DNA from: Escherichia coli
GTDB taxonomy: Bacteria; Pseudomonadota; Gammaproteobacteria; Enterobacterales; Enterobacteriaceae
Reading direction: 5' to 3' (one strand)
Assembly: GCF_003334765.1 (NCBI RefSeq)
Contig: NZ_QOWT01000114.1
Length of the DNA stretch: 530 nt
Shown here: piece after piece, positions 1-530 of the stretch
How the letters are laid out: each line of letters starts with the position of its first letter
Numbering within the stretch: the stretch's first letter is position 1
The notes under the pieces: model-generated
What the model was told of the DNA's origin: nothing
The model's database searches: none
The model's input: only the letters and a program-made list of their open reading frames with translations
Translations under genes and position numbers: made by a program

Positions 1-57
1 GTCCTTCATCGCCTCTGACTGCCAGGGCATCCACCGTGTACGCTTAGTCGCTTAACC
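1..57 (-). rRNA. rrl: 23S ribosomal RNA, 5'-terminal fragment (gene continues beyond the window start)
   Basis: The reverse complement of 1-57 reads GGTTAAGCGACTAAGCGTACACGGTGGATGCCCTGGCAGTCAGAGGCGATGAAGGAC, which I recognise as the canonical 5' end of enterobacterial 23S rRNA. Mature 5' end placed at plus-strand position 57 from recalled E. coli sequence, not from a search. Confidence 0.93.
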
Positions 58-164
58 TCACAACCCGAAGATGTTTCTTACGATTCATCATCGTGTTGCG
101 AAAATTTGAGAGACTCACGAACAACTTTCGTTGTTCAGTGTTTCAATTTTCAGCTTGATCCAGA

Positions 165-177
165 TTTTTAAAGAGCA
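165..177 (-). promoter_or_regulatory. Spacer boxA-like transcription antitermination element (NusB/NusE binding site in rrn transcripts)
   Basis: The minus strand reads 5'-TTGCTCTTTAAAAATCTGG-3' across 160-178. Its core TGCTCTTTAAAAA matches the boxA consensus TGCTCTTTAACAA at 12 of 13 positions. A second boxA in the 16S-23S spacer is an established feature of E. coli rrn operons. Confidence 0.65.
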
Positions 178-217
178 AATATCTCAAACATCACCCGAAG
201 ATGAGTTTTGAGATATT
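178..217 (-). other. Extended imperfect hairpin in the spacer RNA with a C(UUCG)G tetraloop
   Basis: Plus-strand 178-188 (AATATCTCAAA) is the perfect reverse complement of 207-217 (TTTGAGATATT), giving an 11-bp outer stem. Inside it, CATC (189-192) pairs with GATG (200-203), with a 3-nt bulge at 204-206. On the transcribed strand the apex reads CAUC-UUCG-GGUG, a stable tetraloop closed by C-G with a U-G wobble. Confidence 0.6.
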
Positions 218-250
218 AAGGCAGGTGACTTTCACTCACAAACCAGCAAG

Positions 251-326
251 TGGCGTCCCCTAGGGGATTCGAACCCCTGTTACCGCCGTGAAAGGGCGGT
301 GTCCTGGGCCTCTAGACGAAGGGGAC
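251..326 (-). tRNA. gltT/U/V/W: tRNA-Glu (anticodon UUC), complete 76-nt gene with encoded 3' CCA
   Basis: The reverse complement of 251-326 is GTCCCCTTCGTCTAGAGGCCCAGGACACCGCCCTTTCACGGCGGTAACAGGGGTTCGAATCCCCTAGGGGACGCCA. It has a 7-bp acceptor stem (GUCCCCU/AGGGGAC), a 5-bp anticodon stem (CCGCC/GGCGG) and a 7-nt loop CU-UUC-AC; the anticodon corresponds to plus 290-292 (gaa). The T-arm GGTTCGAATCC and terminal CCA (plus 251-253) are present. It matches the E. coli tRNA-Glu of the spacer-Glu rrn operons. The paralog cannot be decided from this window; minus-strand placement would fit gltW of rrnG only if the contig follows K-12 orientation. Confidence 0.97.
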
Positions 327-497
327 ACGAAAATTGCTTATCACGCGTTGCGTGATATTTTCGTGTAGGGTGAGCTTTCATTAATAGAAAGCGAACGGCC
401 TTATTCTCTTCAGCCTCACTCCCAACGCGTAAACGCCTTGCTTTTCACTTTCTATCAGACAATCTGTGTGAGCACTGCAAAGAACGCTTCTTTAAGG
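327..497 (-). other. 16S-23S internal transcribed spacer, proximal part (16S to tRNA-Glu)
   Basis: Lies between the 16S 3' end (498) and the tRNA-Glu 5' end (326) on the same strand. No ORF or independent signal; contains a 7-bp perfect palindrome at 340-356. Confidence 0.9.
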
Positions 498-530
498 TAA
501 GGAGGTGATCCAACCGCAGGTTCCCCTACG
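498..530 (-). rRNA. rrs: 16S ribosomal RNA, 3'-terminal fragment (gene continues beyond the window end)
   Basis: The reverse complement of 498-530 reads CGTAGGGGAACCTGCGGTTGGATCACCTCCTTA, the conserved 3' end of bacterial 16S rRNA including the anti-Shine-Dalgarno CCUCC. Mature 3' end placed at plus 498. Confidence 0.95.

Follow-up and report, generated by a model that had tools for sequence, protein, structure and literature searches.

The 530 nt examined here (the window, meaning the whole stretch of DNA that was analysed) run across the spacer between two ribosomal RNA genes, and the question they raise is how far such a spacer can be traced back to its source: to a species, to a class of rRNA operon, to one particular operon or even to a strain. 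The window is the antisense strand of an rRNA operon and all of its features lie on the minus strand (Table 1). In the loci 100% identical to it, the RefSeq annotation lets 23S rRNA begin at window position 57 and 16S rRNA end at position 498, and both rRNA matches to Rfam models fall below the gathering score only because the window truncates the two genes. The Rfam tRNA match (254-326, minus strand) scores 60.1 bits with an E value of 1.4e-12, and in alignment the tRNA-Glu shows no mismatch to K-12 gltT, gltU, gltV and gltW. Neither tRNA-Ile nor tRNA-Ala was found in the window by ARAGORN, and Rfam likewise reports just one tRNA. Coding potential is limited to four open reading frames of 26-33 amino acids, all overlapping RNA features. 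Rfam matches to SNORD24, ceN33, mascRNA, a plastid element and Tymo_tRNA-like were dismissed as chance, being far below their gathering scores and overlapping the tRNA or spacer. A position between the 16S and 23S ends, a single tRNA-Glu(UUC), a boxA and strands of the processing helices together place the spacer in the tRNA-Glu class. The preliminary description of this DNA had put a Glu-class spacer at 58-497, and ARAGORN, Rfam and the RefSeq boundaries agree with it exactly. The window is an ordinary, already known stretch of an E. coli rRNA operon.

Table 1. Features located in the 530-nt window, with the evidence for each.
Feature	Position	Strand	Evidence
23S rRNA 5' end	1..57	-	Rfam LSU_rRNA_bacteria model positions 1-57, E 1.8e-7; RefSeq 23S start in identical loci
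5' strand of 23S-enclosing helix (RNase III processing stem), pairing just after the 23S 3' end	52..83	-	duplex energy
16S-23S internal transcribed spacer, 440 nt, tRNA-Glu class, 171 + 76 + 193 nt	58..497	-	bounded by rRNA ends
Match to Rfam RF01830 StyR-44	65..173	-	124.9 bits (gathering score 54); model positions 1-107 of 107
Spacer boxA core UGCUCUUUAA	168..177	-	one exact match
UUCG-loop stem-loop (boxB-like) directly upstream of boxA	178..217	-	inverted repeat I2, 16-nt arms, 88% complementary; in fold
tRNA-Glu(UUC) gene, 76 nt	251..326	-	ARAGORN, anticodon ttc; Rfam; K-12 alignment
Hairpin at tRNA-proximal end of long block	325..366	-	inverted repeats I1, I5, I11; minimum-free-energy fold
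Optional long-form block, 106 nt (20 nt here in short-form spacers)	327..432	-	alignment with the four K-12 Glu spacers
3' strand of 16S-enclosing helix (RNase III processing stem), pairing with the leader upstream of 16S	440..493	-	duplex energy
16S rRNA 3' end	498..530	-	Rfam SSU_rRNA_bacteria model positions 1501-1533, E 1.1e-5; RefSeq 16S end in identical loci
Anti-Shine-Dalgarno CCUCC within the 16S 3' end	501-505 (ggagg)	read on +	

Judged by comparison with E. coli genomes, the source species can safely be taken to be E. coli. All of the 5426 complete E. coli genomes searched with megablast match the window, the median number of places in a genome being 7, in agreement with seven rrn operons, and a query that includes tRNA-Glu gives a median of 4 places, equal to the four Glu-type operons. 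Chance is far from accounting for such matching. Eleven records from these genomes are 100% identical over 530 nt, which is identity at within-species level, and eight more differ by one base. It is the matching of every genome together with these perfect matches that makes the species call safe, and the earlier impression of an Escherichia-like spacer is borne out by 100% matches in E. coli genomes. Shigella is phylogenetically placed inside the E. coli species and the first reading of this DNA was worded as Escherichia/Shigella-like, both of which leave some room for a Shigella strain as the source; however, the exact matches found in the collection of complete E. coli genomes are all named E. 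coli and their flanks equal those of K-12, and such a source is in our opinion quite unlikely. Among the genomes, IH5 (NZ_CP168269.1), labelled 'complete', gave one short partial place per spacer-half query, one of these places being listed under '16S ribosomal RNA | Ail/Lom family outer membrane beta-barrel protein'; the rrn operons of IH5 seem to be missing from the assembly or collapsed in it. Records labelled plasmids hold ten places that match the window, and these records are probably split chromosomes or mislabelled replicons.

The four Glu spacers of K-12 MG1655 differ in layout, which, given as 16S-to-tRNA + tRNA + tRNA-to-23S, is 171 + 76 + 193 (440 nt) in rrnB, 171 + 76 + 184 (431 nt) in rrnG and 85 + 76 + 193 (354 nt) in both rrnC and rrnE. 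The layout of the window equals that of rrnB and of no other K-12 operon. Between 16S and tRNA-Glu a 106-nt block replaces 20 nt, which makes this spacer a long form as in rrnB and rrnG, rrnC and rrnE being short. With K-12 rrnB (rrsB-gltT-rrlB) the window has in common the layout, the 106-nt block, tRNA-Glu, boxA and the hairpin, and 523 of 530 bases are identical, while seven substitutions separate the two at window positions 483, 477, 226, 223, 222, 127 and 80. At all seven sites the window has the base of K-12 rrnE. Outside 327-432 the sequence of K-12 rrnE (rrsE-gltV-rrlE) shows zero differences from the window; opposite the 106-nt block it carries the 20-nt short block, in a spacer of 354 nt. 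K-12 rrnG possesses the same 106-nt block and the same tRNA-Glu but is otherwise more distant: it shows 26 substitutions and a deletion of 9 nt, the hairpin in front of its boxA has another sequence, and its tRNA-23S segment measures 184 nt. Set against the K-12 operons, the allele would look like a rare mosaic in which a 16S-proximal segment of rrnE/rrnC type is joined to the long block, as inter-operon recombination would produce.

The exact allele is present in 11 of the 5426 complete genomes (0.2%). Its two halves are not equally common: of 60 rows spread over the respective ranking, 11 match the 23S-side half (window 1-326) exactly, and an exact match to the 16S-side half together with the long block (327-530) occurs in the top row only (1/60). 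The allele is rare on account of the combination, i.e. the rrnE/rrnC-type 16S-proximal segment beside the long block. When 60 rows were taken evenly over the ranking for 178-432, 21 had the long block with the hairpin type of the window, 10 had the long block with the hairpin type of K-12 rrnG and 29 had short spacers only.

Spacer exchange between operons may be tolerated because of the way in which the spacer pairs with its surroundings. The helices enclosing 16S and 23S are of the kind that RNase III is known to cut. At a locus identical to the window (L001), the duplex of the leader with the 54 nt of spacer nearest 16S (440-493) has an energy of -59.4 kcal/mol, compared with -23.8 +/- 3.7 for shuffled sequences (z = -9.5), and the duplex of 52-83, a stretch made up of the final spacer bases and the first ones of 23S, with the 23S trailer has -42.3 kcal/mol, compared with -17.9 +/- 3.7 (z = -6.7). 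The leaders of rrnB, rrnC, rrnE and rrnG agree over the whole length between their boxA (TGCTCTTTAA) and 16S, apart from a single base in the two rrnC loci; as this base lies outside the pairing stretch, the latter is identical in all four Glu operons. A swapped spacer would consequently keep its pairing with the leader, and this would explain why spacer exchange is tolerated.

The tRNA-to-23S part of the spacer carries the elements connected with antitermination. BoxA is the assembly site of the Nus-factor antitermination complex, and a boxB-like hairpin in front of it is generally known to have a role in antitermination. The boxA core had an exact match in 0 of 200 shuffled sequences, and the motif is also found in the leaders of every operon examined. 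The two copies of a direct repeat (window 63-84 and 193-214) share the motif ACCCGAAGATG, read as CAUCUUCGGGU on the RNA strand, with a UUCG tetraloop sequence in it; one copy lies in the hairpin upstream of boxA and the other in the strand of the 23S processing stem. The spacer upstream of 23S also matches the full model of StyR-44 (Salmonella Typhi npcRNA 44), a 109-nt RNA that was described in front of 23S in each of the seven rrn operons of both Salmonella Typhi and E. coli and that, according to its describers, is possibly a mere metastable intermediate of rRNA processing (PMC2943607). The matching segment in the window differs from an independent gene, being simply the part of the spacer from boxA to just before 23S; any Enterobacteriaceae rrn spacer would match StyR-44 and the match should not be read as a separate small-RNA gene.

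The position of the allele in genomes was determined from flanking genes in eight of the 11 exact-match records; the three left out (G6/7, G8 and SF10) look like sisters of G1/2 and HL15 by name and coordinates. As the search gives the best place per record, the rrnB region was additionally fetched for G1/2, 160-11H1, AF58, HSP425 and E423. The exact 530-mer is situated at rrnB (murI/murB) in all eight inspected carriers, which are FORC 064, H3, HL15 and the five just named. Five of the eight possess a second identical copy: at rrnG, between clpB and kgtP, in 160-11H1 and E423; at rrnC, between yieP and aspT-trpT-hdfR, in AF58 and HSP425; and at rrnE, between purH and yjaA, in G1/2. These copies were compared base by base, and the 530-mer is not confined to rrnB; it occupies two operons inside single genomes. 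The three neighbours with one mismatch that were placed, 33-6, DLI.5a and SCPM-O-B-9504, all have their copy at rrnB and differ from the window at positions 88, 483 and 477, respectively, the last two being sites that also separate the window from K-12 rrnB. In G1/2 (NZ_CP060083.1) the annotated 16S genes are 1534 and 1520 nt long and the 23S genes 2860 and 2893 nt, compared with 1542 and about 2904 nt elsewhere, which suggests indel errors in the assembly; both of its spacers are base-perfect to the window despite these irregular lengths.

The choice of operon could be attributed to a sequence that is diagnostic for rrnB, so that the paralog might be typed from the window itself, to a likelihood in favour of rrnB, or to one of the other Glu operons. 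A diagnostic sequence would be in accordance with K-12 rrnB being the sole K-12 operon with the 171 + 76 + 193 layout, with the allele at rrnB in 8/8 carriers and with the rrnB position of 3/3 one-mismatch neighbours. It is contradicted by the identical copies at rrnE, rrnG and rrnC and by the two copies in 5/8 carriers, and among the rows sampled along the ranking several that match 178-432 at 100% lie near 1.16-1.22 Mb on the minus strand, which from coordinates we infer to be the rrnG position in genomes rotated to a dnaA start. The strict rrnB rule is refuted and survives only as a statement of likelihood; the idea that the sequence as such is diagnostic has next to no probability left, and a firm rrnB call from the layout, which was also considered, was rejected for the copies at rrnG, rrnC and rrnE.

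The converse explanation places the source of the window in one of the Glu operons other than rrnB (rrnC, rrnE or rrnG), which would have obtained an rrnB-type spacer by gene conversion. It has more in its favour, as second copies are present in five of the eight inspected carriers and operons are documented to exchange their spacers (PMC8022953). Against it, every inspected carrier has the allele at rrnB too, the rrnE spacer of FORC 064 is of the short form, and 8 of the at least 13 identical copies located in the eight checked genomes, by best place per record and the rrnB region, sit at rrnB. We regard a non-rrnB source as a real but lesser possibility. The layout shared with K-12 rrnB and the presence of the allele at rrnB in all eight inspected carriers make rrnB the most likely source operon, somewhat better than an even chance, and the window by itself is no proof of it, since the identical 530-mer is found at different operons in different strains. 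This bears out the reservation in the preliminary description that 530 bp do not suffice to tell the operon unless the flanking genes are seen.

The long block, which we take to be the 'ribosomal spacer loop' (rsl) of rrnB, deserves separate consideration. The rsl was reportedly described for rrnB by Harvey et al. in 1988, together with the figures of 106 and 20 nt. Of the 5426 complete E. coli genomes, 2791 contain the block, the median copy number being one and the highest seven, and in 2775 of these 2791 it is at least 99% identical to the copy in the window. Seven places in one genome would imply either additional Glu-type spacers beyond the customary four or the presence of the block in spacers of another type. 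The predicted fold of 327-456 (minus strand) has -37.4 kcal/mol (z = -2.86) and holds the hairpin beside the tRNA, and in it the far end of the block is base-paired with the part of the spacer that both forms have in common. The exact sequence of the block, searched as 98 nt and then as 38 nt, was absent from 100,044 species-representative genomes, a result that covers exact matches only and a collection in which many drafts perhaps lack rrn spacers.

Presence or absence as a unit, in about half of the genomes, and inverted repeats would be expected if a mobile element had once entered the spacer and left the block behind as its remnant. The remaining observations argue against such an origin. 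The block shows no similarity to phage records, and its sole match in the plasmid collection, CP061244.1, is a 1.41-Mb E. coli 'plasmid', probably likewise a split chromosome or a mislabelled replicon. The block takes the place of a 20-nt block and interrupts nothing, and in the alignment no target duplication was noted on either side of it. Its 4008 places in the 5426 E. coli genomes, at most seven per genome, are all chromosomal, with none seen outside rrn spacers. A mobile-element remnant is therefore highly improbable. It is also rather improbable, if less so, that the block is a structured module restricted to the E. coli lineage, spread preferentially from rrnB and endowed with a function of its own, e.g. 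in maturation of 16S or tRNA-Glu, rather than a neutral length variant. Neither the phage and plasmid searches nor the genome scans or the fold gave a pointer to a mobile element or a separate function.

Concerning lineage, the unique upstream flanks of 2 kb at rrnB, rrnG and rrnC are 100% identical among the carriers and to K-12, while in the control ABU 83972, presumably a phylogroup B2 strain, 38 of 2050 bases (1.9%) upstream of rrnG, on the clpB side, differ from the carriers and K-12. The allele appears, as far as these flanks tell, to circulate in strains close to K-12, and from their K-12-identical flanks we infer that the carriers belong to phylogroup A. Their isolation sources, spread over four continents, range from cucumber, duck and chicken meat to human faeces, urine and blood. 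We also observed that the rrnG-type spacer (431 nt, with its own hairpin and the 9-nt deletion) is identical in K-12 and ABU 83972 despite the 1.9% divergence of the flank. Some spacer types may be stably tied to one locus across distant lineages and others may be mobile. The preliminary title, that paralog and strain could be typed, holds in a coarse sense, the allele being rare and accompanied by K-12-identical flanks; no single strain or operon can be named from it.

Taken as a whole, we give a probability of about 0.95 to the explanation that the window is an E. coli long-form Glu spacer, an rrnE-like mosaic with its home at rrnB and with secondary copies elsewhere. Such a long-form spacer of 440 nt would be transcribed within a single 16S-tRNA-23S-5S precursor, in which, according to established knowledge of the enzymes, the two spacer ends would be base-paired, one with the 16S leader and the other with the 23S trailer, in the long helices that RNase III cuts, and tRNA-Glu would be excised from the middle. 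The hairpin and boxA would keep RNA polymerase in antitermination mode into 23S, as is likewise established. The usual home of the allele would be rrnB, in strains with flanks equal to K-12, and in several strains another Glu-type operon would have received a copy of it, with gene conversion as the most likely route, a mechanism taken over from established knowledge.

Spacer exchange between rrn operons is said to have been the subject of Harvey and Hill 1990 and of the Hill-lab work on the 'rsl'. Gene conversion and spacer exchange between E. coli rrn operons are well documented, with rates given (PMC8022953). Gene conversion between operons, the theme of these studies (Harvey and Hill 1990, the Hill-lab 'rsl' work and the G3 2020 rates), predicts the same allele at two operons of a genome and at four loci across strains, as seen here; in contrast to them, ours is a pattern in natural isolates and no measured event, in which donor and direction would have to be deduced. 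The constant carrier locus rrnB and the varying second locus fit gene conversion, with rrnB as the putative donor. Spacer mosaicism and inter-operon conversion are already known from publications, and our findings fit this knowledge.

From these results it follows that a spacer allele which looks specific for one operon of K-12 can be met with in natural isolates of E. coli at each of the four Glu-type operons, and twice within single genomes. The importance of this is little beyond bookkeeping, and its lesson concerns typing based on spacers or rrn operons: it is unsafe to decide from the K-12 reference which paralog a spacer read belongs to, and such alleles would carry coarse information on lineage rather than identify a strain.
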